In this document: positions 1-45,163 of the stretch, piece after piece | Layout of the letters: every line of letters starts with the position of its first letter | Numbering within the stretch: the first letter of the stretch is position 1 | NCBI GenBank assembly: GCA_947627745.1 | Contig: CANQXH010000001.1 | Location: 63-64,062 of the forward strand | Length of the DNA stretch: 64,000 nt | From: an uncultured Oscillospiraceae bacterium | GTDB lineage: Bacteria; Bacillota; Clostridia; Oscillospirales; Oscillospiraceae | Direction: 5' to 3' | Notes under the pieces: generated by a model | The model's database searches: none | Told to the model about the DNA's origin: nothing | What the model saw: the letters and a program-made list of their open reading frames with translations, nothing else | Program-made: the position numbers and the translations under genes

Positions 1-795
1 TACCTCGATTTCCTTTGCCAGCGCGACGCCCTCTTTCCTGCGGGCGACGCTCAGATCCATCAATGCGGACAATTCCAGCATGGATAACTTCTTCTCTTTC
101 AGGATACGGATTTGCCGGCAGGCTTTCTCCGTAACCGCTACATACTGCTTGCCAAGCTCCAATGCGGACAGGCAGTGAAGCAGCGCCGTGTCGGTAAGCG
201 TCCCGTTAAAAAAGGACGCAAGCTCCGTATACATGCGGTCGTTGGCGATATATCCGGTAATGACGTCATATCCCGCGGCGAATGACGCATATTTTTCGTA
301 CAGAGCAGTACCTTTTGCCGCCTCCATCTCCTTGCGGTGGTAAGCGATCAACATAGCCCAATCCATGTCCAAATCCACGGACAGCACCTTTAGTCCCGTC
401 AAGTCCAGTTCGACGGTATAAAAGACCGGGCTTGCTTCCGCGCAGATCAGCGTCAGGGGCTGGATCGTGCTGGTTCCCATATAGAAGCCCCTTCCGAAAT
501 CGCATTCCGCCCGACTGATAGGCGCTATGTCACCGGTAAGTCCGCTTTTGGAACCGTGATACAGAATGAACCGGTCGTTATCGTTCGGAAATTCCACGGA
601 ACGAATGACCATCTCGGCCAGCGGTATATGATATTCTTTGCAAAAAGAAGCGAGATGTTTCTGCGCCATTTTGGTTGGAAAATTTTTTCCGTTTTCCCAG
701 CGGTTAATGGATAGGACCGTAGTACCGAGCGCATTGGCAAACTGCTCCTGGTTCATTCCCGCCTTTTGACGAATCTCACGAATCAATTCTCTCAA
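1..795 (-). CDS. XRE-type HTH fused to a DUF3990-like domain; the 3' end runs off the left edge of the window
   Basis: My own translation of the minus strand from TTG at 795, preceded by AGGAGG, gives LRELIREIRQKAGMNQEQFANALGTTVLSINRWENGKNFP (HTH) and then ILYHGSKSG...ECDFGRGFYMGTS (DUF3990-like). The frame is open to position 1. It is missing from the ORF track because no stop codon falls in the window. Confidence 0.7.
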   Translation of the reverse strand, partial: MRELIREIRQKAGMNQEQFANALGTTVLSINRWENGKNFPTKMAQKHLASFCKEYHIPLAEMVIRSVEFPNDNDRFILYHGSKSGLTGDIAPISRAECDFGRGFYMGTSTIQPLTLICAEASPVFYTVELDLTGLKVLSVDLDMDWAMLIAYHRKEMEAAKGTALYEKYASFAAGYDVITGYIANDRMYTELASFFNGTLTDTALLHCLSALELGKQYVAVTEKACRQIRILKEKKLSMLELSALMDLSVARRKEGVALAKEIEV

Positions 796-807
796 AGAAT
801 TGTCCTC

Positions 808-857
808 CTATCAAATGATGTTTTATCTATTGTATCACTTGATAGTGCCAATGTCAA
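808..857 (-). promoter_or_regulatory. Sigma-A type promoter with a flanking 7-bp palindrome, a putative autoregulatory operator
   Basis: On the minus strand: TTGACA (857-852), a 17-nt spacer, then TACAAT (834-829) preceded by TG. The inverted repeat CTATCAA (808-814) / TTGATAG (839-845) brackets the -10 box. Confidence 0.5.
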
Positions 858-1032
858 TAACGGCAAAGACCGGTGCTGAGTATTACCAACGATGAGCAAA
901 ATGGGGAAACGGACGAATCAAAGAAAACTTCCCGCCGCAAGTTTGATTTGCTGCGGACAGATAAGGTTTCCTGAATGAAACGATTGGTCTTAATTTTTCT
1001 TCTTTGCTCTACTCCAACTATTGACATAGAGC

Positions 1033-1066
1033 CAAAAAATAACAGGTCGGAGTGATCTGACCTGTT
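1033..1066 (-). terminator. Intrinsic terminator of the XRE gene at 1065-1448
   Basis: An 8-bp stem AACAGGTC / GACCTGTT (1041-1048 and 1059-1066) is followed on the minus strand by a T-run (A-run 1034-1039 on plus). Confidence 0.6.
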
Positions 1067-1448
1067 AGTAATCTGTATTCAGTTTAGATGAATGCATGGA
1101 CTTCTTGACTTCCTTGACAATTTTGAGAATTGACTCGATCTCAGTCGGTGTACAATCCTCAAGCAACTCTGCAAACTCGCTTTTATAAATGTTATTCACC
1201 TCGGGGATATCCGTGCGAAGCAGGATGTCGGCGGAAACCTGCAATGCCTCGACAATTCCAATGAAAGTTGTAAGCCGCATAGAAGACTTGCCTGTCTCGA
1301 TGTCGCTGACCTGAGATAAGGAGATGTTGGCTTTATCCGCAAGATCGGCCTGACTCATTTTCTTGTTGGTTCGGATATCACGGATTCGCTTTCCGATTTC
1401 TATGACTTCCTCCGATCGCGGATTGCTTCTCACTTCTCTCACCCCCAT
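1065..1448 (-). CDS. XRE-family HTH transcriptional regulator (cI-like arm of a divergent pair)
   Basis: 127 aa. The HTH reads MSQADLADKANISLSQVSDIETGKSSMRLTTFIGIVEALQVSADILL. Confidence 0.85.
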   Translation of the reverse strand: MGVREVRSNPRSEEVIEIGKRIRDIRTNKKMSQADLADKANISLSQVSDIETGKSSMRLTTFIGIVEALQVSADILLRTDIPEVNNIYKSEFAELLEDCTPTEIESILKIVKEVKKSMHSSKLNTDY

Positions 1449-1475
1449 TTCGGCTTAACCATATACCTTAATAAA

Positions 1476-1540
1476 ATTATATCGGGATTACGCCAAGCTT
1501 CCATAGCGTAAACGCCATAATATCGGGTTAACGCTATAAT
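1476..1540. promoter_or_regulatory. Divergent promoter/operator region with two 16-nt direct repeats
   Basis: The repeats are ATATCGGGATTACGCC (1479-1494) and ATATCGGGTTAACGCT (1520-1535), 13 of 16 identical and 41 bp apart. The first overlaps a minus-strand TATAAT (1481-1476). The second abuts a plus-strand TATAAT (1535-1540). AGGAGG lies at 1559-1564 before the ATG at 1572. Confidence 0.45.
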
Positions 1541-1571
1541 AAAACCAACTTTATTTTTAGGAGGTTTTATT

Positions 1572-1934
1572 ATGGCAATCAACTTCGTACAAATTGGGAA
1601 GCATATCGGAGAAATCAGAAAGCGTCGAGGTCTTTCTCAGCAGAAGCTCTCGGACATCATCAACAAGTCCCCGACCTACGTCAGCTACATTGAAGGAGGG
1701 CTCAAGTGCATGAGTCTCGACACGTTCGTCTCCATCGCAAATGCTCTCCAGGTATCCGCAGATGAGCTCCTCAAGGACAACATCGAGAACAACATAAAAG
1801 TGGCAAACCACGAATTTGCTTCCCTGATCGCAGACTGCAGTGAATACGAAAAACGAGTCCTTCTTTCTATGCTGAAGGCAGCAAAGGCGGCCATGCGGGA
1901 GAACCGGCATCTTCTGATAACTCGGCGCAAATAA
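1572..1934 (+). CDS. XRE-family HTH transcriptional regulator (Cro-like arm of the divergent pair)
   Basis: 120 aa. The HTH reads LSQQKLSDIINKSPTYVSYIEGGLKCMSLDTFVSIANALQVSADELL. It has a strong RBS. Confidence 0.85.
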   Translation: MAINFVQIGKHIGEIRKRRGLSQQKLSDIINKSPTYVSYIEGGLKCMSLDTFVSIANALQVSADELLKDNIENNIKVANHEFASLIADCSEYEKRVLLSMLKAAKAAMRENRHLLITRRK

Positions 1935-2174
1935 ATTATATGGACATATTGTGCGAGACGCAATCGACCGAAAGTCAACGATTTCACTCCTGGTTTATAG
2001 ATTCAAAGTTGACATGGTCGATTTATTTCTATTCTCTCTGGACTTGTGCGGATGTCGCTGGTATTGTGTGTTACTGACAGGATTACATTTTCGCCGAATC
2101 CTATTACATTTTCGGTAAAATCGAGATTTTTCAGGGGCCCACCAGTATAATTAAGTACGGAAGGATGATGACCG

Positions 2175-2885
2175 ATGGTCTATTTTACGGGCGATATACA
2201 CGGCGCGGCCGACGGTATCGCTGACTTTATAAACAAAGTACATCCCACCATGGATGATGTAATCGTCCTCTTGGGGGATGTAGGCGCAAATTATTATTCA
2301 GGCCGCAGAGATAACTTGCTGAAAGCCTTTCTCAACGATGTCGGAACGATGTTCCTCTGCATCCACGGAAACCATGAAAGGCGTCCGGTCACCATACCGG
2401 GATATATCAAAACTGAATGGCACGGCGGAAAGGCATGGGTTCAACCCGAGTACCCCAATCTGATCTTTGCCAAGGATGGAGAAATATATACGTTGAACGG
2501 ACTCCGCTACCTTGTGATCGGCGGCGCATACAGTGTGGACAAGTACTACCGGTTAAGCCGAGGCTGGGGCTGGTGGTCTGACGAGCAGCCATCGAAGGAA
2601 ATCAAAGCCTATGTGGAACATCAGATTCAGAGCAAACCGTTTGATATCGTCCTGTCTCACACCTGTCCGTTTAAGTATGAGCCAACCGAAATGTTTCTCG
2701 GAGGGATTGATCAGAGCACGGTTGATGACAGCACAGAGCGTTGGCTTGATACCATCGAGGAATCCATTAAATACAAGGCGTGGTTCTGTGGGCACTGGCA
2801 CACGGATAAGAGGATCGACAAGATGCACTTCCTGTTCCACTCCTTCGAATCTGATGAGCAGTTCAGGAAATCAATGGAGGATTGA
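2175..2885 (+). CDS. Calcineurin-like metallophosphoesterase (paralog 1)
   Basis: 236 aa with the MPE motifs GDIHG, LLGDVG, GNHE, LSHTCP and GHWH in canonical order. Confidence 0.8.
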   Translation: MVYFTGDIHGAADGIADFINKVHPTMDDVIVLLGDVGANYYSGRRDNLLKAFLNDVGTMFLCIHGNHERRPVTIPGYIKTEWHGGKAWVQPEYPNLIFAKDGEIYTLNGLRYLVIGGAYSVDKYYRLSRGWGWWSDEQPSKEIKAYVEHQIQSKPFDIVLSHTCPFKYEPTEMFLGGIDQSTVDDSTERWLDTIEESIKYKAWFCGHWHTDKRIDKMHFLFHSFESDEQFRKSMED

Positions 2886-2888
2886 GCT

Positions 2889-3314
2889 ATGAGAAAACTA
2901 CCATCACTGAACGAGATGGAACATATCTCATCCAAGGAGTTTGGTGAAAACATGGACGCCATCCTGGATCGGGTTACAGATGGAGATACCGCTTTCATCA
3001 TTGATCATAACGACAAATCCTATGTTCTCTGCCCGGCAAGATGGTTTGAGCTCCCCGAGCTGAAACGCATGGAACTGCTGGTCAAGAACGCTGTGCGGTT
3101 CGTCATCTCCGTTGATGACTCAGATCTTGCTGAAACCGTGCAGATGGTCAAGGATATGGCTCCGGCTCTATCACCGGAATGCATCAACAGCCTCCTTGAC
3201 CTGATCAAGGGTAAAGATGTCAAGACGGGCAATAACGAATGGGATGAACTGCGACAGGCTTTAGAAGCAGCTCTACCGACAACCGAAAAAAGAAAAGATG
3301 AAGATACACCATGA
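2889..3314 (+). CDS. Small protein with a Phd/YefM-antitoxin-like N-terminus
   Basis: 141 aa. The N-terminus ISSKEFGENMDAILDRVTDGDTAFIIDHNDKSYVLCPARWFE resembles the Phd/YefM fold pattern. Its stop overlaps the next start (ATGA at 3311-3314). Confidence 0.6.
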   Translation: MRKLPSLNEMEHISSKEFGENMDAILDRVTDGDTAFIIDHNDKSYVLCPARWFELPELKRMELLVKNAVRFVISVDDSDLAETVQMVKDMAPALSPECINSLLDLIKGKDVKTGNNEWDELRQALEAALPTTEKRKDEDTP

Positions 3315-3925
3315 TTTACTATATTGCGGACATGCACTTCGGGCACAAGAACGTGCTGCGCTTTGACAACCGGCCCTTTGCGGATACGGATCTGATGGAT
3401 GAAGCGCTGATTCACAACTGGAACGAACGAGTCACAGACGAAGATACGGTCTATGTACTTGGCGATGCCTTCTGGAAGAACGAAGAAAACAGCGTAAAGA
3501 TCATCCGGCGCCTCAACGGACACAAGCATCTGATTCGCGGCAATCATGACCGAGTACACGGCCAGCTGAGATTCCATTGGGAGAGCATCGAGCAGTATGT
3601 GGAAATCAACGACGGGAATACGCTGGTCATCATGAGCCACTATCCCATCATGTTCTATAAGAATCAGCACTATGGCTCCGTCATGCTCTATGGTCACGTA
3701 CACAACACTCGAGAGTGGCAGCTCGTAGAAAAGTGGAAGCACGAGCAGTGGAATATGGGTATTCCGAGCAGGCTGATCAACATAGGTTGCATGATGGACT
3801 ATATGGGATACACACCCCGTACTCTTGAAGAACTGCTGAAAGAAAACCCAATGCCGGTATTCGACAGAATTCGAAAAGATGGGACACCCATCGCCAATCC
3901 GTCGGAGGACACGTGTAATGGATAG
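3311..3925 (+). CDS. Calcineurin-like metallophosphoesterase (paralog 2, phage-type DMHFGH class)
   Basis: 204 aa with motifs IADMHFGH, LGDAF, GNHD, SHYP and GHVH. Confidence 0.8.
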   Translation: MIYYIADMHFGHKNVLRFDNRPFADTDLMDEALIHNWNERVTDEDTVYVLGDAFWKNEENSVKIIRRLNGHKHLIRGNHDRVHGQLRFHWESIEQYVEINDGNTLVIMSHYPIMFYKNQHYGSVMLYGHVHNTREWQLVEKWKHEQWNMGIPSRLINIGCMMDYMGYTPRTLEELLKENPMPVFDRIRKDGTPIANPSEDTCNG

Positions 3926-4235
3926 CCAAGACAAACTCATCGATGACGTTGAAGTCATAGCAAATAAGATAAAAGATCTTCTCGATTTAGCCTATGTTCA
4001 GTACTCCAAATTGGTGGATGCGGTGCTGGCCGGCAGCATAACCGAGGAAAATCAGATTGAACATATTCTTGACGGTATTATAGATTTCGGAGATGACCTG
4101 CGTTTCCTGGAATTATCCAAGAAGCTTTGCCGCCATATCTACTACCGGTACCCGCATCTTGTAGGAAACTTTGATAGCATGTATCGAATGATGTTCGAGT
4201 TGAGAGAGGATTCCAATGGAAATGGTGACGATTGA
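3918..4235 (+). CDS. Hypothetical helical acidic protein
   Basis: I chose the ATG at 3918, which overlaps the stop of the upstream gene. The track ORF 3879-4235 is in the same frame. I recognise no motif. Confidence 0.5.
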   Translation: MDSQDKLIDDVEVIANKIKDLLDLAYVQYSKLVDAVLAGSITEENQIEHILDGIIDFGDDLRFLELSKKLCRHIYYRYPHLVGNFDSMYRMMFELREDSNGNGDD

Positions 4236-4434
4236 GGTCAGGCTCCCCAAAGAAATATACGATAAGGCTTCCGAAATTCTTGCCAAGCAGGGACTCACTA
4301 TGGAAGACGCCATTGTCCTGTTCTATAACGAAACAGCCAGACTTGGGCGAATCCCATTCGAGTATACCGAAGAAGATCTTGAAGAAGCCAGGAGATGGGA
4401 GAAAATGATAAACGATGATTTATGTGATGTCTGA
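4216..4434 (+). CDS. RelB/DinJ-family antitoxin-like protein
   Basis: 72 aa. VTIEVRLPKEIYDKASEILAKQGLTMEDAIVLFYNETARLGRIPFEY follows the RelB/DinJ ribbon-helix-helix pattern (...Gl..s.ai..f.....iPFe). It overlaps the next gene by 20 nt. Confidence 0.65.
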   Translation: MEMVTIEVRLPKEIYDKASEILAKQGLTMEDAIVLFYNETARLGRIPFEYTEEDLEEARRWEKMINDDLCDV

Positions 4435-5164
4435 TATCCACGGAAATGCCATTCGGTTCAACTCTATCATGGAACAGATCAATCTGCAGCCGGAGGATAC
4501 TCTCTATGTCCTCGGAGATGTTATTGATCGGTATCCGGACGGCATCAGAATACTCCGTTTGCTGATGAGTATGCCCAACGTGCAGATGCTCTTGGGCAAT
4601 CACGAATACATGATGCTGAATGTCCTGGACCGGCTTGACAAAAATAATCCCGAGTATCCCCACGCCGTGCGTCTTTGGTACCGTAACGGCGGGGACATTA
4701 CGCACGAGTATATAAAGCATATTCAGAAATCTGTCCGTATGGAGGTCTTCAATTATCTTCACAGCCTGCCATTAAATATCGATATTGAGGTCAACGGTCA
4801 GCAATATCTCCTCGTGCACGGCGGAGCTATCGCATTGTATCACCACTACATGAACCGGTACGATACCCAGGAAGAATATGCGGTATGGAACCGCGTTTAC
4901 TACAACTCACCTGATGTTAATGGCAAAATAATCATCTTCGGTCATACGCCGACATCGGAATACCAGCGCAACAACCCACTCGAGATTTGGCGGTCGCCGT
5001 CCGGAGGCAAGATCGGAATTGACTGCGGGTGCGGGTTTCCACATCCCTTATCCCAGGGACAGCATCCTGAGTACGGAAGGCTCGCATGTCTGCGATTGGA
5101 TGATATGAAAGTGTTCTATTCAAGCGAAGATATCCCAGAGGAGGTGGAGGAAATTGTCTGGTAA
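4415..5164 (+). CDS. PP-lambda/PrpA/ApaH-like Ser/Thr-type metallophosphatase (paralog 3)
   Basis: 249 aa with motifs SDIHGN, LGDVIDR, GNHE, VHGG and GHTP. Confidence 0.8.
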   Translation: MIYVMSDIHGNAIRFNSIMEQINLQPEDTLYVLGDVIDRYPDGIRILRLLMSMPNVQMLLGNHEYMMLNVLDRLDKNNPEYPHAVRLWYRNGGDITHEYIKHIQKSVRMEVFNYLHSLPLNIDIEVNGQQYLLVHGGAIALYHHYMNRYDTQEEYAVWNRVYYNSPDVNGKIIIFGHTPTSEYQRNNPLEIWRSPSGGKIGIDCGCGFPHPLSQGQHPEYGRLACLRLDDMKVFYSSEDIPEEVEEIVW

Positions 5165-6428
5165 CTTAACTCAACCCAAAGTGGATCATTATATTCATTG
5201 GCTTAGCAGAAATGAGCACTTTGGATTGCGTGGGTGCATTTACGATGATGAAAGCAACAAACTGCTTGATGAATTATTTGATCTGATCGAACAGATTGCT
5301 CCAGTCTCTAAGAACGGGGCAAGGGTCCTCTGGCTTCGCGCAGAACGAGGGCCAATCGAGGATTACGGCAACGCAGAGGAAGAAGTGGCTTGCGGCGAAT
5401 TCGATTCGGTCAAACAGTTCGTTGAAGATTGGAAAGAATGGTTTCCGGAAGAAATCAAGTGGTATCAGCTGCAAGCGGTTCAACTCAAAGATGAGGGATA
5501 CAGGGCAGTCATGGTTGGACACAAATATGTAATTGTCCAAGACAAACGTAGAGAGCCCGCCGGATTCCCGAATGAAATTCCTGAGTTTGTCCAGTGGTTA
5601 ATTGATGGAGTCAAAGAGTGTATCGAGATGCTCAAAGCCGGAACGTATAACGACTTCGTTAATGGTAGCCTGCCCCCGCAGCATCGAACTGGAAAGATCC
5701 TCCGCAAGAATTATTGGGACGTATGGCCGGAGGCGAGAAAAGAGTTCTTTAAGAACATCTCCGCAGAGGATGTGGCTGAATTTATCCGAAAGGCAACCGC
5801 TCAGAGAGAACGCTCCGAAACAATTAAAGAACGACTGCCATCCATGACGGCCAATGACTTCTTCCGATTCTGCGCCATGGGTTATGCAGAGAACAAATAT
5901 AAGGGCTGCGATAAAACACCGAAAGAACAGTATTACCTCCATGCTGACGGCCGAGATGAAGGACTTCGGGATCTCGATCCTGACGATCCCACGGCATTTC
6001 AAGCATGGCTCAATGGCTCCTCACGTGGAGGCGGGCATCCATGGGAAGTCTGCAGAGGCGGCAACTCAACTCATGTTTCTCTGCGACCGATAGATGACAA
6101 AGACGGCTATTACCTTTGCCTGGACGGAGATGCATGGAACAGAACCATCGAAACGGTCAAGTTCTATCTTGCCCTGACAAGAGCGGGCGTTCCGGTGTAT
6201 CTCATAGAAGCCCATACTCTGGCAGATAGGCTGGCAGAGAAGGAATGGATCGGAATTGTGCCAGAGGGCGTGATGCCGGCCTATTGTGAGAGCTGGTTCC
6301 CAAACGAGCATATCATCGACTACATGAATCTGCCCTATGAGGACCGGGAGAAGTTTCTGCCCTTCTGCGTATGGTATGAGGAGAAGCCGATTATGCTTGC
6401 AAAGGAAAAGGAGAGAGATCTGAAATGA
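5154..6428 (+). CDS. Hypothetical 424-aa protein with no recognisable family
   Basis: The TTG start at 5154 is preceded by GGAGGTGGAGGAAA and overlaps the stop of the upstream gene. The reading frame is long and non-repetitive, and its composition matches its neighbours. Confidence 0.6.
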   Translation: MSGNLTQPKVDHYIHWLSRNEHFGLRGCIYDDESNKLLDELFDLIEQIAPVSKNGARVLWLRAERGPIEDYGNAEEEVACGEFDSVKQFVEDWKEWFPEEIKWYQLQAVQLKDEGYRAVMVGHKYVIVQDKRREPAGFPNEIPEFVQWLIDGVKECIEMLKAGTYNDFVNGSLPPQHRTGKILRKNYWDVWPEARKEFFKNISAEDVAEFIRKATAQRERSETIKERLPSMTANDFFRFCAMGYAENKYKGCDKTPKEQYYLHADGRDEGLRDLDPDDPTAFQAWLNGSSRGGGHPWEVCRGGNSTHVSLRPIDDKDGYYLCLDGDAWNRTIETVKFYLALTRAGVPVYLIEAHTLADRLAEKEWIGIVPEGVMPAYCESWFPNEHIIDYMNLPYEDREKFLPFCVWYEEKPIMLAKEKERDLK

Positions 6429-6808
6429 GCGGAGGATGCTGGAATTATACAAATGATAGCCTTGCAAATGAAGTTCTTGGATATTACATAGATGTCGATT
6501 ACGGTCTGGACAGCGTCAGGCATGATAAGAACTACAAGCAAGTCATAAGGGACAACCCTTTAGGTGATCCCGAAATATCCGCACTCGTTTATGATGTGTT
6601 CTGCCTGCTGCATTCTTATGATTGGGCAGAATCCGGCGACACGGACATGGACGACTATCAAAGAGATGTGGAAATCTTCAAAAGTCGATGGTTTAAAAAG
6701 GCACGCAAAGATCAAATCAGAGAGATCATCGACATCAGCACAGAGAATCTGAAAGACAACCTATACAGGGCGTTCGGCTGCAAAGCGGAAACAAGTAGTG
6801 AACCATGA
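6425..6808 (+). CDS. Hypothetical 127-aa acidic protein
   Basis: Its start overlaps the upstream stop (ATGA at 6425-6428). I recognise no motif. Confidence 0.55.
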   Translation: MSGGCWNYTNDSLANEVLGYYIDVDYGLDSVRHDKNYKQVIRDNPLGDPEISALVYDVFCLLHSYDWAESGDTDMDDYQRDVEIFKSRWFKKARKDQIREIIDISTENLKDNLYRAFGCKAETSSEP

Positions 6809-6881
6809 GTTCAATGACTTTCCGACCTCAACCCGATACAATAAGCACAGACAATAAATCATAATGACGAGGTGAGTGTAT

Positions 6882-7520
6882 ATGAACTTGAAAGAAGCGT
6901 TCCGTTATCAAAACAAGCTCCAATCCTTCATGGATGAAGCCCAGGGGATTCTGGATCGTGATTCCAATGTTACCAAGGTGGAGAATACCTATTTGCGGCA
7001 CAAGGTAACGGCAGAGGCCGAGGATGAGACTGTCATCATCGCCCCCGAAACCGAATACTATGAGCAGATCACCAATATCGCTCAGTTCCTGCTGTATCTT
7101 CTGAAGGAGAAGGACCAGCTGTTCGCAGCTATCCGCAATGCAAAGGATGCCCTTGACATCGATATGGACAGCGAGGTCAGCCTCAATGCCACTCGACAGA
7201 GCATCGCCCGCACTTTCAAGCGAATGAATGATCTGCGCAATTCGGAACAGACCATCTCCAACGGAGGCACCGGCTACCGTTTTAATGCTGAAGGCAATCA
7301 GATTTCCTATCGCTGCGACGTCAAGCGCGTGACAACGATCAACTATGATCGTAAAATCATCCGCGACGAGCTCGGCAAGCTGAATAAGCAGGCTGATGAG
7401 ATGTCCACGAAGATTGATCTGTGCCTGGTCACATCCAAGGTGGACTATGAACCGCCCTTTGATGTGAACTCGAGCTTCGCCGAAGCGTTCGAGGCATACA
7501 CGGAAAACGCCAGGGCTTAA
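6882..7520 (+). CDS. Hypothetical coiled-coil protein
   Basis: The ATG at 6882 lies 6 nt after GAGGTGA (6869-6875). The track start at 6876 (GTG) leaves no spacer. The product (MNLKEAFRYQNKLQSFMDEA...) is helical and rich in charged residues. Confidence 0.6.
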   Translation: MNLKEAFRYQNKLQSFMDEAQGILDRDSNVTKVENTYLRHKVTAEAEDETVIIAPETEYYEQITNIAQFLLYLLKEKDQLFAAIRNAKDALDIDMDSEVSLNATRQSIARTFKRMNDLRNSEQTISNGGTGYRFNAEGNQISYRCDVKRVTTINYDRKIIRDELGKLNKQADEMSTKIDLCLVTSKVDYEPPFDVNSSFAEAFEAYTENARA

Positions 7521-7537
7521 TGCCCTGGCGCAGACCG
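7508..7537 (+). terminator. Intrinsic terminator ending the 9-gene operon
   Basis: A 9-bp stem CGCCAGGGC / GCCCTGGCG (7508-7516 and 7522-7530) with loop TTAAT overlaps the stop codon. The downstream tail is only weakly T-rich. Confidence 0.5.
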
Positions 7538-7857
7538 ACTATTTTGGGTGCGGCAAGATAAGAGAATATGGATACCGGTTCAGGTGCAGATGAACTATAA
7601 GGCTGCACACGTCTGTAAGGATATTCAGGTTCGGCTCACCCTACGAGCCTTCATAATAGGAGAAAAGAAGCATTCAGCTTCTCCATCACCGCTCTGCTTC
7701 CTTACATCAGAACCGTTTTTTCGTCACCACTCTCATTCTTGCTTCCAAACTGACATCTCCATTTTGAGGCATGCAAGCCCAACTCGCTGATTACGAGATT
7801 TCAATGATCAAATACTGATCTTTCTTCCTCCGTGAGCTGCGTCGAAAGCGTGACTCG

Positions 7858-8226
7858 TCATGCAGCCGACAATGCAAACGGAACAAATGGTTGAAGTTGC
7901 ATCGGACTCTTGCCGTATCCAAAATAGCCGGTCATAAAATGACTTGAGCAGCAGGACTCAGCCTGCTGCTCACCGACGATATGCAGTTTTACCGCAACGG
8001 GAACCAGGATCTGATCCATCGGAACCTCAAAGAGATTTCCAAGTGCGTACAGATTATCTACAGTAGGAAGGCTTTCGCCTTTCTGCCACTTGTAGATTGC
8101 CCGAGGTTCCTCAAAGCCGAAGTAGCTCTGCAGATCTCGAACAGTCAAGCCGCGCTCGATGCGCAGGCGACGGATGTTGTTTCCCGTGGCGACAAGGTCA
8201 ATCACGGGAAAGCCTTTCATATACAT
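7858..8226 (-). CDS. XRE-family HTH transcriptional regulator
   Basis: 122 aa. The HTH reads IRRLRIERGLTVRDLQSYFGFEEPRAIYKWQKGESLPTVDNLYALGNLF. GGAGG lies 8 nt upstream of the ATG at 8226. Confidence 0.8.
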   Translation of the reverse strand: MYMKGFPVIDLVATGNNIRRLRIERGLTVRDLQSYFGFEEPRAIYKWQKGESLPTVDNLYALGNLFEVPMDQILVPVAVKLHIVGEQQAESCCSSHFMTGYFGYGKSPMQLQPFVPFALSAA

Positions 8227-8311
8227 GAAAATCGCCTCCTTCAGAGAGTGATATTAAAGAATAGCAGGTTCATACAAAAAAATCAAGGCCCAAAATGCAA
8301 GGGAGGTCAAA

Positions 8312-8689
8312 TTGAGAGAAAAACTGTACTGGTCAATCAGCAAGTTCTCCGCCCGCGCACTGTTCTATGACTACTTCGTGTTCTTTGATACAACACCCTA
8401 TCTTGCCGATCAATTGTTTATCCGGCATGAGGTTCGCGTATGGTTTGACAGGGAATACGCAAAAGACAGCTCTCCCTACCTCGCTATTTTCTGTCATGTC
8501 AAGAAGAAGGACGTACCGAAGTTTCTCGCGGCTTTGGATGATTTAAAGAAAAGCATGATCCTATGTGGTCATCCGCACTACGAAGAAGAAATCAGTGCCT
8601 ATATGGATAAAATGGACAAAATGAAAGGAGCGTTGCACGGCGATGAAAATGACACCACTCAAGAAACAGAGCAAAAGCAAACAGCGTAA
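8312..8689 (+). CDS. Hypothetical 125-aa protein (TTG start)
   Basis: The ORF is divergent from the XRE gene. I recognise no motif. Confidence 0.45.
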   Translation: MREKLYWSISKFSARALFYDYFVFFDTTPYLADQLFIRHEVRVWFDREYAKDSSPYLAIFCHVKKKDVPKFLAALDDLKKSMILCGHPHYEEEISAYMDKMDKMKGALHGDENDTTQETEQKQTA

Positions 8690-8763
8690 ATACTACTCGT
8701 CTAAGCGAGGCTCCTGGAACGGAGTCTCACCTATAACCCGTATTGTACAGAGCAGGAGGGTTT

Positions 8764-9123
8764 ATGACAGAAACCGAATTAAACGAGAGGATCAACGAGC
8801 TGCAGGAGAATGAATCGGAAGCAGACCATCAGGGACAGAAAGCTCGCCGCAGACTGCGGAGAATTACCAACATCAGAAAGACAGACAGACTGCTTCAGAT
8901 AATCAATTACGGAGGGTATGCTCCGCACCGAGGATATATCAATTGGGGCTTCAGCGGAAAGACGCTGCTTCACTCAGGAAAATACATCAAATATCCCAAG
9001 AACAGCAATCGCCAGAGGTGGATCAAGAGTGAAACGAGCCACTGTATTCGCAGATGCAGGGACATCCCTGCAAAAGGCAATTATTACCGAAGACTCTTTG
9101 ATTATTGGTGGACGCTATATTGA
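8764..9123 (+). CDS. Hypothetical basic protein with a Trp/Tyr-rich C-terminus
   Basis: The ATG at 8764 lies 4 nt after AGGAGGG. The C-terminus reads KYIKYPKNSNRQRWIKSETSHCIRRCRDIPAKGNYYRRLFDYWWTLY. I cannot name the family. Confidence 0.55.
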   Translation: MTETELNERINELQENESEADHQGQKARRRLRRITNIRKTDRLLQIINYGGYAPHRGYINWGFSGKTLLHSGKYIKYPKNSNRQRWIKSETSHCIRRCRDIPAKGNYYRRLFDYWWTLY

Positions 9124-9136
9124 TGAGGATCAGGAC

Positions 9137-9751
9137 ATGAATTTGCACTATGTGATAAACTTATGGGAACCCGCAGCTCCGGCATTTTGTTCCTTTTCCA
9201 AGCCCTATGTGGGCAATAAGAAGGATTTGCTTAAGGTTGCAGCAAAAATGCAAAATGCCGACCCGCAGAGCGAGACGGCAAAGGCAATTCAAGAGTATTT
9301 CAACGGGAATCACGGGGCTACGCATAATATCGCGTATCGGGAAGTTCCGATCCTCACGCCTGTAAGAGTATTGGCTTGCTCCACAATGAGATTGCCCGAT
9401 AGAACATGGGAGCATATAAATGCATGGGGATACCCTTACAAAATGAAGTTCGATTCCGCTGATGTCAGCCAGATTATTATCCGTTTCGAAGGGAAATATC
9501 ATCGCTTCATAAAAGCCAGATTCGCCGGTTTCTGCCATGAAGGCATTAAAGGAGATTGGCAATCGGTTGGATTTATGCTTTTTGGAAATGCAGAAGTCAT
9601 AGAAGCCAATGATGAAATGAACACATTTGAAAATCTCTTATATGTGAAGGAAGATACCGCTAAAAACAAGCAGATGCTGAAAGCAGAGCTCGACGACCCC
9701 CGCAATATCGTTTTTGATCGCATCTGTGATGAAATCTTCGGGGACGGATGA
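9137..9751 (+). CDS. Hypothetical 204-aa protein
   Basis: This is the same frame as track ORF 8918-9751. I trimmed it to the ATG at 9137 (GAGGA 8 nt upstream) because the upstream part overlaps the 8764-9123 gene. Confidence 0.5.
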   Translation: MNLHYVINLWEPAAPAFCSFSKPYVGNKKDLLKVAAKMQNADPQSETAKAIQEYFNGNHGATHNIAYREVPILTPVRVLACSTMRLPDRTWEHINAWGYPYKMKFDSADVSQIIIRFEGKYHRFIKARFAGFCHEGIKGDWQSVGFMLFGNAEVIEANDEMNTFENLLYVKEDTAKNKQMLKAELDDPRNIVFDRICDEIFGDG

Positions 9752-9860
9752 CCGATTTGTGGTTCCGAAAAGTCTATATTTCGATGAAAATGTAATTCTG
9801 TTACTAAGACAGATACCAACTGGATCTAAGATAATCCAGATAAAAAAAGCAAAAATCCTA

Positions 9861-10073
9861 TCAACGGTGATCAACGCCATTGCAAAGCGGATTCGTCAGA
9901 TCTTTGATTGCCCTGTCGGCGACGTTCCTCTTTTTTGAGCAGTGCTGATCAATTGTAAGTTTCATTCTTAGATACTCTCGCTCGGATATAACTCCGTGGT
10001 CATGTAAATAATCATTGAAATAGTGCAGCCAAATTTCCTCTGCGACTAACTTCTTTCTCTGTTGGCTGTCCAT
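9861..10073 (-). CDS. Small hypothetical protein (70 aa)
   Basis: The N-terminal half (KKLVAEEIWLHYFNDYLHDHGVISEREYLRMKLTI) looks like small helical proteins common on Clostridial mobile elements. That resemblance is from memory only. Confidence 0.4.
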   Translation of the reverse strand: MDSQQRKKLVAEEIWLHYFNDYLHDHGVISEREYLRMKLTIDQHCSKKRNVADRAIKDLTNPLCNGVDHR

Positions 10074-10324
10074 AACACACCACCATTTTATCTAATAAGT
10101 TGAGGTTTTCTTTTCAAAAGTCCTGTATTACATGAAAGTGTATTTCAGATCGGTAAAACGAGTAGACAGGCGAGGCTAACTAAAAGAGAGCAATACATAT
10201 CTGGGATGTAAAATGTGTCCGGGTGTTACCCGGTTATTTTTATGTGCTTTCCGATATTACAGAAATATGGTACAATTTATAAAAATGACATGTTCCGAAA
10301 GAATGGCGGCATTCAAGAAAAGAG

Positions 10325-10774
10325 ATGTCTATGGAAACGGAAAAACAAGATTCCCTTCAGTGGTGTTGGTGCCTTGTAGGGAACATAGTGGAATCCCATG
10401 AGTATGGAGAAGATCATGAAATCAAAACTGGCACGAAGCAGTTCATGCCGGGCGCTAAAATCTACCTCGCACCCATCCAGTGGGGTGATGGCTATGAGAA
10501 CATTGTCGTCATTGGGAAACCGCGACACAGACGTGGGCTGATAGAAATCGTCATGCACCGAAAGTACATAACCGATTATCGTCTGCAAAAAGTGTTCCAG
10601 CCAGCAGTTTTGGAGCGGATGGAAAAATCGGAATACTCATGGTGGGGCGGTACGGATGAAGATCGAGATAGGATTATTGACATCCTTGATTGGCTCAATC
10701 CAACTTCTGCCGAAAAAGCAAAGCAGGACATGAAAGCTGCCGAACATCCAAATGAAGCATCAGGTGCCGAATGA
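10325..10774 (+). CDS. Hypothetical 149-aa protein, the last gene of the AT-rich island
   Basis: The ORF has an upstream TGgTACAAT extended -10-like box (around 10264-10272). I recognise no motif. Confidence 0.5.
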   Translation: MSMETEKQDSLQWCWCLVGNIVESHEYGEDHEIKTGTKQFMPGAKIYLAPIQWGDGYENIVVIGKPRHRRGLIEIVMHRKYITDYRLQKVFQPAVLERMEKSEYSWWGGTDEDRDRIIDILDWLNPTSAEKAKQDMKAAEHPNEASGAE

Positions 10775-10849
10775 CTGGTAAAAGCCGAGACAGCATGACC
10801 ACTTTTTTGAGCTCAGAATTATTCTAACAGATTCCTTGAAAAATAAAAT

Positions 10850-10881
10850 AAACCACGAGTCATCCTCTTGACTCCTGGTTT
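10850..10881. terminator. Hairpin at the island edge
   Basis: A 13-bp stem AAACCACGAGTCA / TGACTCCTGGTTT has one mismatch. The T-run lies on the minus-strand side (AAAATAAAATA on plus, upstream), so orientation is ambiguous. Confidence 0.35.
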
Positions 10882-10944
10882 ATGACGGGAAAATCGGCCG
10901 CGATAACACAAAAAAGCAAAATATCTTTTTTGGTGCAACGTGCC

Positions 10945-10982
10945 AAAAATCGGCAATCCTCGTTAGAGGGTTGCCGATTTTT
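10945..10982. terminator. Bidirectional terminator-like hairpin
   Basis: AAAAATCGGCAA-t-CCTC-gtta-GAGG-g-TTGCCGATTTTT forms a long stem with A/T runs on both sides. Confidence 0.5.
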
Positions 10983-10987
10983 ACTTT

Positions 10988-11080
10988 TTCACTATTCACT
11001 TTTCACTCTTCACTAGATACGATGGGCCGATTTTTGGAAGGTAAGAAGTAATAAGTAAGAGTGAAAAAGTGAATTGAATG
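10988..11080. repeat. Two inverted arrays of heptamer repeats forming a ~95-nt imperfect palindrome
   Basis: TTCAC recurs at 10988, 10995, 11002 and 11009 with an exact 7-nt period (TTCACTN x4). The right arm 11041-11080 reads GTAAGAA GTAATAA GTAAGA GTGAAAAA GTGAAT. The reverse complement of the right arm (ATTCACTTTTTCACTCTTAC) matches the left arm (ATTCACTTTTCACTCTTCAC). Confidence 0.7.
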
Positions 11081-11153: not shown

Positions 11154-11175
11154 TTAGAAAAAGGAGTTGATTTCT

Positions 11176-12273
11176 ATGAAGCTCGGCATCGTGGGCCTGC
11201 CCAATGTGGGCAAGTCCACCCTGTTCAACGCCATTACCAGCGCAGGCGTCCCGGCGGACAACTACGCCTTCTGCACCATCGACCCCAATGTGGGCACCGT
11301 CAGCGTGCCCGACGGGCGGCTCACCTGGCTGTCGGACTTCTATAAGCCCAAGAAAACCACCCCCGCCGTGGTGGAATTTGTGGACATCGCGGGGCTGGTG
11401 AAGGGCGCCTCCAAGGGCGAGGGTCTGGGTAACAAATTCCTGAGCAACATCCGCACCACCGACGCCATCGTCCACGTAGTCCGGTGCTTTGACGATTCCA
11501 ACGTCACCCATGTGGAGGGGAACACCGATCCCCTGCGGGACATCGACATCATCAATCTGGAGCTGGTGATGGCCGACATTGAAATGGTGGAGCGCCGGGT
11601 GGACAAGTGCCAGAAGGCCGCCAAGGGCGGGGACAAGCGCTTTCTCCGGGAGGCGGAGGTCTTCTCCCGGCTCCTGGCCCACCTGAACGAGGGCAAGCTG
11701 GCCCGGACCTTCGAGGGCAGCGAGGACGAACTGGCCCTCATCGCCACCTCCGATCTGCTGACCCTGAAAAAGGCCATCTATGTGGCCAATATGGACGAAA
11801 ATCAGTGGGCCCAGCCGGAAAACAGCGCATACTACCGCCAGGTCAAGGCCCTGGCCGACGGCGAGGGCAGTCAGGTGATCCCCATCTGCGCCAAGCTGGA
11901 GGCGGACATCGCCGAGCTGGACGATCCGGAGGAGCGGGCCATGTTCATGGAGGAGCTGGGGGTGGCCGAGTCCGGTCTGGACCGGCTGATCCGCAGCAGC
12001 TACGCCCTGCTGGGACTGATCTCCTTCCTCACCGCCGGGGCCGACGAGTGCCGGGCCTGGACCATCCGCCGGGGCACCAAGGCTCCCCAGGCCGCCGGCA
12101 AGATCCACACCGACTTTGAGCGGGGCTTCATCCGGGCGGAGGTCATCGCCTTCGAGGATCTGAAAGCCGCCGGCTCCCTGGCCGCCGCCAAGGCCAAGGG
12201 CCAGGTCCGCAGCGAGGGCAAGGAGTACGAAATGAAGGACGGGGACGTGGTCAACTTCCTGTTCAACGTGTGA
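11176..12273 (+). CDS. ychF: Ribosome-binding ATPase YchF
   Basis: MKLGIVGLPNVGKSTLFNAIT... continues through the full YchF pattern including the C-terminal DGDVVNFLFNV. AAGGAG lies 9 nt upstream of the ATG at 11176. Confidence 0.95.
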   Translation: MKLGIVGLPNVGKSTLFNAITSAGVPADNYAFCTIDPNVGTVSVPDGRLTWLSDFYKPKKTTPAVVEFVDIAGLVKGASKGEGLGNKFLSNIRTTDAIVHVVRCFDDSNVTHVEGNTDPLRDIDIINLELVMADIEMVERRVDKCQKAAKGGDKRFLREAEVFSRLLAHLNEGKLARTFEGSEDELALIATSDLLTLKKAIYVANMDENQWAQPENSAYYRQVKALADGEGSQVIPICAKLEADIAELDDPEERAMFMEELGVAESGLDRLIRSSYALLGLISFLTAGADECRAWTIRRGTKAPQAAGKIHTDFERGFIRAEVIAFEDLKAAGSLAAAKAKGQVRSEGKEYEMKDGDVVNFLFNV

Positions 12274-45128: not shown

Positions 45129-45163
45129 AAATGCTGGAAAGAAAGCTAAAAGGGGTGTCCATC

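Follow-up and report, generated by a model that had tools for sequence, protein, structure and literature searches.

A three-phosphoesterase operon in an uncultured Oscillospiraceae bacterium: probable early accessory region of a temperate-phage-type integrative element

A compact run of plus-strand genes lies near the left end of a 64,000-nucleotide stretch of DNA (hereafter the window) from an uncultured Oscillospiraceae bacterium, taken from contig CANQXH010000001.1 of the assembly GCA_947627745.1 (positions 63 to 64,062, forward strand). Counting the regulator gene g1 at its head, the run comprises ten genes (1572-7520), which combine three metallophosphoesterases, namely MPE1, MPE2 and MPE3, with the small antitoxin-fold proteins g3 and g6 and with four proteins, g5, g8, g9 and g10, that have no assigned family (Table 1). 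A previous sequence-only reading of this DNA had described nine overlapping plus-strand genes at 2175-7520 as a tight operon, and its open reading frames and coordinates were confirmed, as were its gene junctions: the ATGA at 3311, the overlaps of 8, 20 and 11 nucleotides at 3918, 4415 and 5154, and the ATGA at 6425. A further overlap of 20 nucleotides, between g5 and g6 at 4216, can now be added to these. Independent gene calls on metagenome contigs identical to this region give the same genes, with the start of g10 placed at 6882 by the gene callers rather than at 6876. The operon is part of an island of low GC content, which is 0.45-0.50 (47%) over window positions 1-11,000 as against about 0.62 elsewhere, and which ends shortly ahead of ychF (11167-12273). 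In megablast searches the island found no match among plasmids, and its one match among phages, at 74%, covers ychF only. The terminator proposed to close the operon could be upheld only in part. A strong hairpin with a GC stem of 9 base pairs is present at the stop codon of g10, where a 57-nucleotide stretch folds at -25.7 kcal/mol (z -3.56), but its T run is displaced, beginning 10 nucleotides past the stem, and a terminator scan of the window did not include this hairpin (7508-7530) among the sites called. The same scan recovered no terminator-like plus-strand site in the 1935-2174 spacer.

Table 1. Genes and sites of the operon and its flanking regulators (window coordinates)
Feature	Coordinates	Strand	Basis or remark
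xreL, leftward XRE/Cro-CI-type regulator of the divergent switch	1065..1448	-	Pfam HTH_3 5.5e-13
Putative divergent promoter/operator region	1449..1571	.	repeats and imperfect palindrome; presumed operator function
g1, rightward (Cro-side) XRE regulator	1572..1934	+	Pfam HTH_3 5.8e-12
240-nt spacer ahead of MPE1	1935..2174	+	exact 12-nt repeat inside
MPE1, calcineurin-fold phosphoesterase, phrog_1649 family	2175..2885	+	Pfam and PHROG profiles
g3, Phd/YefM-fold N-domain (about residues 10-55) and helical C-domain	2889..3314	+	AlphaFold/Foldseek
MPE2, aq_1665-like phosphoesterase, phrog_547 family	3311..3925	+	PHROG and 1xm7 profile
g5, acidic 105-aa protein, no family assigned	3918..4235	+	
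g6, short RelB/DinJ-like ribbon-helix-helix protein, 72 aa	4216..4434	+	Pfam RelB
MPE3, PPP-type phosphoesterase related to lambda phosphatase (NinI) and ApaH	4415..5164	+	phrog_246
g8, conserved 424-aa protein, no family assigned	5154..6428	+	1,310 homologues
g9, 127-aa protein, no family assigned	6425..6808	+	
g10, last operon gene, no family assigned	6876..7520	+	kept in 21 related loci
Terminator-like hairpin over g10 stop codon	7508..7545	+	9-bp GC stem
xreR, third XRE regulator, convergent with the operon	7858..8226	-	Pfam HTH_3 7e-7

Profile searches bear out the earlier view that the three enzymes are clearly distinct members of the calcineurin fold. All of them exceed the gathering score of Pfam Metallophos, and each falls into a PHROG of its own: MPE1 matches Metallophos at 7.3e-16 and phrog_1649 at 1.5e-26; MPE2 matches Metallophos at 6e-6, Metallophos_2 at 3e-6 and phrog_547 at 1.4e-41; and MPE3 matches Metallophos at 2e-16 and the NinI-like phrog_246 at 4.7e-46 over residues 2-244. 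The five calcineurin motifs (DxH, GDxxD(R), GNH(D/E), H and GHxH) are complete in each of the three proteins and invariant among their relatives (family alignments A4 and A5). In MPE1 these motifs are D7-x-H9, G34-D35, G65-N-H-E, H162 and G206-H-W-H. This protein is 56% identical to an annotated metallo-phosphoesterase of the Oscillospirales phage PV036458, and its profile weakly matches Lmo2642 (PDB: 2xmo, E 5.5e-4), which we take to be a cyclic-nucleotide phosphodiesterase. The family profile of MPE2 covers aq_1665 (PDB: 1xm7) over its full length (4.3e-26). Homologues of MPE2 are found in 1,574 phage records, each annotated merely as phosphoesterase, and in some phages the phrog_547 gene adjoins that for a DNA primase or a Holliday-junction resolvase. 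MPE3 displays the motifs DIHG, GDVIDR, GNHE and GHTP, which constitute the signature of the phosphoprotein phosphatase (PPP) family, and it is related to lambda phosphatase (PDB: 1g5b, 8.4e-9), to ApaH (2.6e-8) and to the phosphatase domain of Pnkp. Its motifs and profile matches thus place MPE3 within the lambda phosphatase/NinI-like PPP family. As it scores under the NCBIfam equivalog cut-offs for PrpA/PrpB and ApaH, it is to be regarded as a relative rather than an orthologue of these enzymes.

The small proteins g3 and, probably, g6 carry the antitoxin-type folds originally ascribed to them, g3 that of Phd/YefM in its N-terminal domain and g6 that of RelB/DinJ; both folds are DNA-binding dimerisation modules. 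The sequence similarity of g3 to Phd is weak and limited to residues about 10-55 (Pfam E 0.02; phrog_375 E 1.6e-4), and since a search of PDB sequences with the g3 family profile gave no match to Phd/YefM, its fold had to be shown by structure. The AlphaFold model of g3 (predicted local distance difference test score, pLDDT, 79.5) displays an N-terminal domain of the form beta-alpha-alpha-beta-beta-alpha, for which essentially all of the top 37 Foldseek matches are YefM, Phd and RelJ antitoxins. The match to 4zlx_A has a template-modelling score of 0.85 and a root-mean-square deviation of 1.1 A over 46 residues. The helical C-terminal domain (residues 57-127) retrieved no Foldseek match, and the g3 family as a whole is a narrow one of 244 proteins. 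For g6, the Pfam RelB score of 25.7 bits exceeds the gathering score of 22.4. The RelB/DinJ match spans residues 3-54, with the DinJ structure 4q2u recovered at E 0.006 over residues 6-53 and TIGR02384 at 2.1e-9, although the NCBIfam score of 37.5 is under the cut-off of 45.65. Only about 19 residues extend beyond the ribbon-helix-helix region of g6, so that the toxin-binding tail is largely missing. A related form of this domain occurs at the C-terminus of MPE2 itself, in a single open reading frame of 264 residues seen in two related loci (L022, 5738-6532; L019, 5529-6323), and the RelB-like domain of this fusion is 52% identical to g6.

The remaining operon proteins g5, g8, g9 and g10 have no match in Pfam, PHROG, NCBIfam or PADLOC. 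The g5 gene is present in 24 related loci, and several gene orders place it upstream of MPE3 or of the RelB-like gene that precedes MPE3. We considered g5 and g6 as a toxin-antitoxin pair in reversed order and rejected this, given that g5 lacks a toxin-family match and often occurs without g6. The g8 protein is confidently modelled by AlphaFold (pLDDT 87; predicted template-modelling score 0.79) and has the invariant motifs HADGRD and GGHPWEVCRGGNSTH, while its model retrieved no Foldseek match in PDB or BFVD and a tblastn search of phages and plasmids gave just three weak partial matches. Large serine recombinases are encoded in the flanks of 26 of 77 g8 loci, and g8 often directly follows a trio of them. 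By comparison, g9 is rare, being found in only 8 related loci.

To the left of MPE1 stands a switch of the type that governs lysogeny. The genes g1 and xreL form a divergent XRE pair separated by a 123-nucleotide spacer, which contains a pair of 18-nucleotide direct repeats (AT[T/A]ATATCGGG..ACGC; 1476-1493 and 1517-1534) as well as, over 1503-1537, an imperfect palindrome. The repeats and the palindrome are candidate operators. Another candidate operator is an exact 12-nucleotide repeat, ATTACATTTTCG, which occurs ahead of MPE1 at 2082-2093 and 2103-2114, with the copies 21 nucleotides apart. The best NCBIfam match of g1 is the RstR phage repressor family, at a score under the cut-off. The divergent arrangement of xreL and a g1-type XRE gene recurs in 30 related loci. 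In relatives, xreL is followed on the same strand by a small resolvase-like gene and by a large serine recombinase of 630-635 residues, and further serine recombinases and a DUF6551 protein are often encoded beyond it. At the opposite end of the operon, xreR is found downstream of g10 in most related loci.

The same organization is seen in PV036458 (IMGVR 15609780, Ca. Heliusvirales), a complete 75-kb temperate Oscillospirales phage that provides the top phage match to MPE1. Its genes encode a DNA polymerase, helicase, terminase, portal, capsid, tail and lysin proteins and three serine recombinases. A lysogeny module with recombinases and DUF6551 is succeeded in this phage by an XRE pair and then by MPE1, h204, two unknown genes and MPE3, and a partial RelB-like open reading frame is also present. 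The recombinases and phosphoesterases of the phage are 50-69% identical to those of the related loci. Because PV036458 unites the recombinase module, the XRE pair, MPE1, h204 and MPE3, the operon can be understood as the Cro-side arm of a phage-type lysogeny switch. Its Cro-side location, as expected for the early operon of a temperate phage, is borne out by the switch and the integrases and by the homologues in a complete phage. The sequence-only reading had named a match to a phage nin-like module as evidence that would count against its own proposal, and such a match applies to a part of the operon: the switch, MPE1, h204 and MPE3 correspond to the early region of PV036458, and MPE3 is NinI-like, but the correspondence does not extend to the operon as a whole.

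The conservation of gene pairs was examined across about 100 loci. These were collected with g8 as the anchor (80 from genomes and 11 from IMG/VR), with g3 and g6 as further anchors, and from phage records. The operon families were mapped onto these with hidden Markov models at the level of domains, using envelope coordinates and, for the RelB-like family, a model built from length-filtered seeds; pairings were then counted over 36 distinct gene orders. Gene order proved to be shuffled, with no obligate pairing of a small gene with a phosphoesterase. The g3 gene is tied to a particular enzyme, being adjacent to MPE2 in 11 of its 15 occurrences (several of the four exceptions are split genes), with coding sequences that overlap or abut in both gene orders. 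The converse does not hold, as MPE2 has g3 beside it in 11 of 27 cases and lacks it in the other 16. Intact MPE2 genes without g3 are seen, for example, in L010, L016, L023, L025 and L056; of these, L010 has MPE1 followed by MPE2 across a gap of 42 nucleotides, and L023 has neither small gene. The order is reversed to g8, MPE2, g3 in L020, L024, L033, L055 and L074, and that of MPE2 and g3 is likewise reversed in L104. Upstream of MPE3 (21 cases), a RelB-like gene is found six times, g5 three times, g8 once, and another gene or none 11 times; downstream of the RelB-like gene (16 cases), MPE3 is found six times, g8 four times, and another gene or none six times. These patterns are typified by a common variant (g3 homologue P0230, 110 contigs) with the order h204, an unknown gene, MPE3, MPE1, g3, MPE2, g5, RelB-like gene and g8, in which the RelB-like gene overlaps g8 and MPE3 is preceded by an unrelated gene. 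The nine-gene order of the window is also found with the RelB-like protein P0275, for which the assembly collection lists 1,238 blocks. The element family is accordingly widespread in metagenome assemblies.

Given the above observations, we interpret the locus as an early accessory operon, on the rightward (Cro) side of the switch, that belongs to a temperate-phage-type integrative element of gut Oscillospirales/Clostridia, a reading to which we assign a probability of about 0.72. Several points weigh against it. PV036458 lacks MPE2, g3, g5, g8, g9 and g10, so that the operon is only partly shown to be phage-borne, and homologues of g8 come from 11 loci in IMG/VR as against 104 in genomes. The gene adjoining xreL, on the minus strand at window positions 1-795 and running off the window start, encodes a protein with HTH_3 and DUF3990 domains and occupies the place where relatives have the resolvase-like gene and the recombinase. 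The window holds only the right-hand 11 kb of the element, and this copy may represent an entire prophage, a remnant or a small island of the satellite type. Neither virion nor replication genes were found in the part of the element inside the window, and no virion genes were found within 10 kb in any related locus. Contigs with identical proteins are no longer than 12.6 kb and all end within 40 nucleotides of the window start, and this shared break suggests a repeat or a variable junction there. In three relatives (L094, 1-1533; L095, 81-1182; L122, 1-2216) the left recombinase is truncated or missing and genes of conjugative elements are present instead, namely TrbL_2 with HicAB, a sigma-70 r4 protein with HTH_16, or ArdA; the pair of sigma-70 r4 and HTH_16 proteins we take to be regulators of the Tn916 type. 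The module therefore also resides beside or inside conjugative elements. Finally, the designation as early is derived from the place of the operon downstream of the switch and from the comparison with phages.

With respect to cargo, the commonest sister variant (L091, 13648-16426, and L092-L097) encodes, about 1.4 kb past the third XRE gene, a cyclic-oligonucleotide-based anti-phage signalling system (CBASS) comprising a SAVED effector, a SMODS cyclase and Cap2. Defence genes can therefore be regarded as cargo for which the element has a site at its right end.

For the phage-type operon envisaged here, we infer the timing of expression, the substrates and the partner roles of g3 and g6 as follows. 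The divergent XRE switch would control the operon, and expression would take place upon induction or upon entry into a cell. The operon would then deliver three independent phosphoesterases, catalytically competent as judged from their motifs, along with g5, g8, g9 and g10. As an enzyme of the lambda-phosphatase/NinI type, MPE3 might dephosphorylate proteins and/or act on 2',3'-cyclic phosphates; MPE2 would be a phosphodiesterase of the aq_1665 type with DNA-binding-fold partners, namely g3 and the RelB-like domain; and MPE1 is predicted to be a further phosphodiesterase. The small proteins g3 and g6 would serve as accessory or regulatory subunits rather than as antidotes needed for the survival of the cell.

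The translational coupling of MPE2 to g3 and its fusion to a RelB-like domain in some relatives suggest that MPE2 acts on or at DNA. The DNA-binding folds of its candidate partners g3 and g6, the primase and resolvase neighbours of its phage homologues, and the precedent of phage calcineurin-fold enzymes that act on DNA all point in this direction. Among the latter, gp47 of Bxb1 is a calcineurin-like exonuclease that serves as a recombination directionality factor (RDF) and is needed for replication (PMC11795197); Gp48 of mycobacteriophage A10ZJ24 is expressed early, damages host DNA and aids counter-defence (PMC12287305); and A1 of T5 is a further calcineurin-like phage enzyme that acts on DNA or in host takeover (PMC7824862). 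It is conceivable, if still speculative, that g3 and the RelB-like protein have been recruited as dedicated partners of MPE2 in a previously undescribed enzyme-partner complex, which might either target the enzyme to DNA or restrain it until induction. Such a complex, if real, would provide the first functional handle on a phosphoesterase family present in more than 1,500 phage genomes.

An alternative is that the operon is a counter-defence cassette, the phosphoesterases of which degrade the immune signals of CBASS, Pycsar, type III CRISPR (clustered regularly interspaced short palindromic repeats) or Thoeris systems, or repair or dephosphorylate RNA or proteins damaged by defence systems, with the Phd-like and RelB-like proteins serving as decoy antitoxins against abortive-infection toxins. 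The placement of the operon directly behind the switch and its shuffled, variable content, typical of arms-race genes, are compatible with this proposal, as are the relationships of MPE3 to lambda phosphatase, ApaH and the Pnkp phosphatase domain, the weak match of MPE1 to the presumed cyclic-nucleotide phosphodiesterase Lmo2642, and the occurrence of g6 as a RelB/DinJ-type protein without a cognate toxin. Anti-signal roles have, moreover, been predicted for some phage calcineurin-like enzymes by comparative genomics (PMC7824862). However, our literature searches found no defence signal for which degradation by a calcineurin-fold enzyme has been demonstrated, CBASS is itself encoded by sister elements, g6 keeps little of a toxin-binding tail, and a RelB-like domain that is fused to MPE2 is more readily explained as a part of the enzyme than as a free decoy. 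On balance, we regard a cassette dedicated to counter-defence as unlikely, though worth keeping in view.

A role in excision or replication appears less probable still. Under this proposal at least one of the phosphoesterases, or else a small partner protein, would moonlight as an RDF for the large serine recombinases and/or serve replication of the element. The attraction of the idea lies in the large serine recombinases that adjoin the switch in relatives and in PV036458, in the requirement that an excision cofactor come from the induced arm, and in the Bxb1 precedent, where a calcineurin-like RDF is also needed for replication (PMC11795197). Nevertheless, gp47 belongs to phrog_221 (4.5e-116) and has no significant similarity to MPE1-3 (pairwise BLASTP E at least 0.07); the loci L039, L045, L049 and L068 have three serine recombinases and g8 but no phosphoesterase; and the number of phosphoesterases does not track that of recombinases. 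We also considered a one-to-one match of three recombinases with three phosphoesterases, which was rejected since three-recombinase loci without any phosphoesterase exist. In the course of this comparison we observed that the RefSeq record of Bxb1 (NC_002656, L101, 7876-8788) labels the 46-residue gp46 as the RDF and gp47 as 'metallo-phosphoesterase'; as the literature names gp47 as the RDF (PMC11795197), the label appears to be shifted by one gene.

The proposal with which the sequence-only reading had begun fares worst. It supposed that the operon might hold two or three unconventional toxin-antitoxin-like or defence modules, each with a phosphoesterase as effector and an upstream Phd-like, RelB-like or XRE protein as antidote. 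Such an interpretation draws on the small gene that comes first and overlaps a larger partner, on the antitoxin-type folds, confirmed for the g3 N-domain and probable for g6, on the usual adjacency of g3 to MPE2, on the toxicity to its host that a phage metallophosphoesterase may have (PMC12287305), and on the CBASS near some element variants. Yet the gene-order comparison contradicts obligate pairs: besides the 16 of 27 intact MPE2 genes without an adjacent g3 and the five loci in which g3 lies downstream of MPE2, 15 of 21 MPE3 genes have no RelB-like gene ahead of them, and in 10 of 16 cases the RelB-like gene is followed by g8 or by other genes. The proposed toxins therefore persist without the proposed antitoxins, the reverse of what a toxin-antitoxin system would lead one to expect. 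The partner genes of g3 and g6 match no known toxin family in Pfam (nor, for MPE2, in PHROG and NCBIfam), and the three phosphoesterase families are ordinary phage families. In g3, a folded helical C-domain of 70 residues replaces the short disordered toxin-binding tail of Phd/YefM antitoxins. The XRE protein, once viewed as an antitoxin-like partner of MPE1, is separated from it by 240 nucleotides, forms half of a phage-type divergent switch independent of MPE1, and precedes other genes where MPE1 is absent (L013, L015 and L028). Nor is there a sign of a known defence system: no PADLOC model is matched by the nine operon proteins, and the search of PADLOC-DB v2 returned only generic XRE/control-protein matches for g1 and a match of MPE3 at E 0.0036 (14.8 bits) that is probably due to chance. 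Phosphoesterase-based toxin-antitoxin modules are thus very improbable at this locus. By way of caution, an antitoxin-fold neighbour does not of itself make an enzyme part of a toxin-antitoxin system, and comparison of gene orders offers a cheap test of such proposals.

Elsewhere in the window, a second low-GC patch (45131-48940, plus strand; 32-48% GC as against about 62%) contains a single gene for a leucine-rich-repeat protein of the BspA type, which has 1,269 residues and includes a lipase/Mbeg1-like domain and a Listeria-Bacteroides repeat. In all likelihood this is a surface protein gained by horizontal transfer.

Among the accessory genes of phages that still lack an explanation, those for calcineurin-fold phosphoesterases rank with the most common. 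The element family described here places two to four of them directly behind a lysogeny switch, and hence offers a good natural system for asking what role such enzymes have at induction or entry. The orphan-fold protein g8, the coupling of g3 to MPE2 and the fusion of MPE2 to a RelB-like domain constitute concrete experimental targets.

Taken together, the locus is best read as a phosphoesterase-rich variant of a familiar phage early accessory region, and its relationship to several known systems can be delineated on this basis. With the Phd-Doc/YefM-YoeB and RelBE/DinJ-YafQ systems it shares the fold of the g3 N-domain and, probably, that of the g6 region, as well as the small gene that overlaps a larger downstream gene. 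It departs from these type II systems in that the downstream genes encode phosphoesterases rather than Doc, YoeB, RelE or YafQ, the pairing is not obligate and its order is reversible, g3 possesses a folded helical C-domain, and g6 is shortened. Calcineurin-fold enzymes of temperate phages that use large serine integrases are represented by Bxb1 gp47 and A10ZJ24 Gp48, and the present phosphoesterases share this general setting; gp47, however, is of another family (phrog_221). The resemblance of MPE2 to aq_1665 and phrog_547 extends over the full length of aq_1665 and to many phage homologues, whereas the coupling to a Phd-fold protein or the fusion to a RelB-like domain is seen only in the present element family. 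PV036458 has in common with the locus and its relatives the serine-recombinase/DUF6551 module, the divergent XRE pair, MPE1, h204 and MPE3, and differs in carrying full replication and virion modules. The lambda NinI phosphatase (PDB: 1g5b) has the same PPP motifs as MPE3, whose gene likewise follows a Cro-type regulator in a temperate element. In contrast to the lambda nin region, however, the present operon unites three phosphoesterase families and interleaves them with antitoxin-fold proteins, in an element that resides in a Gram-positive gut anaerobe and has large serine recombinases as its integrases.

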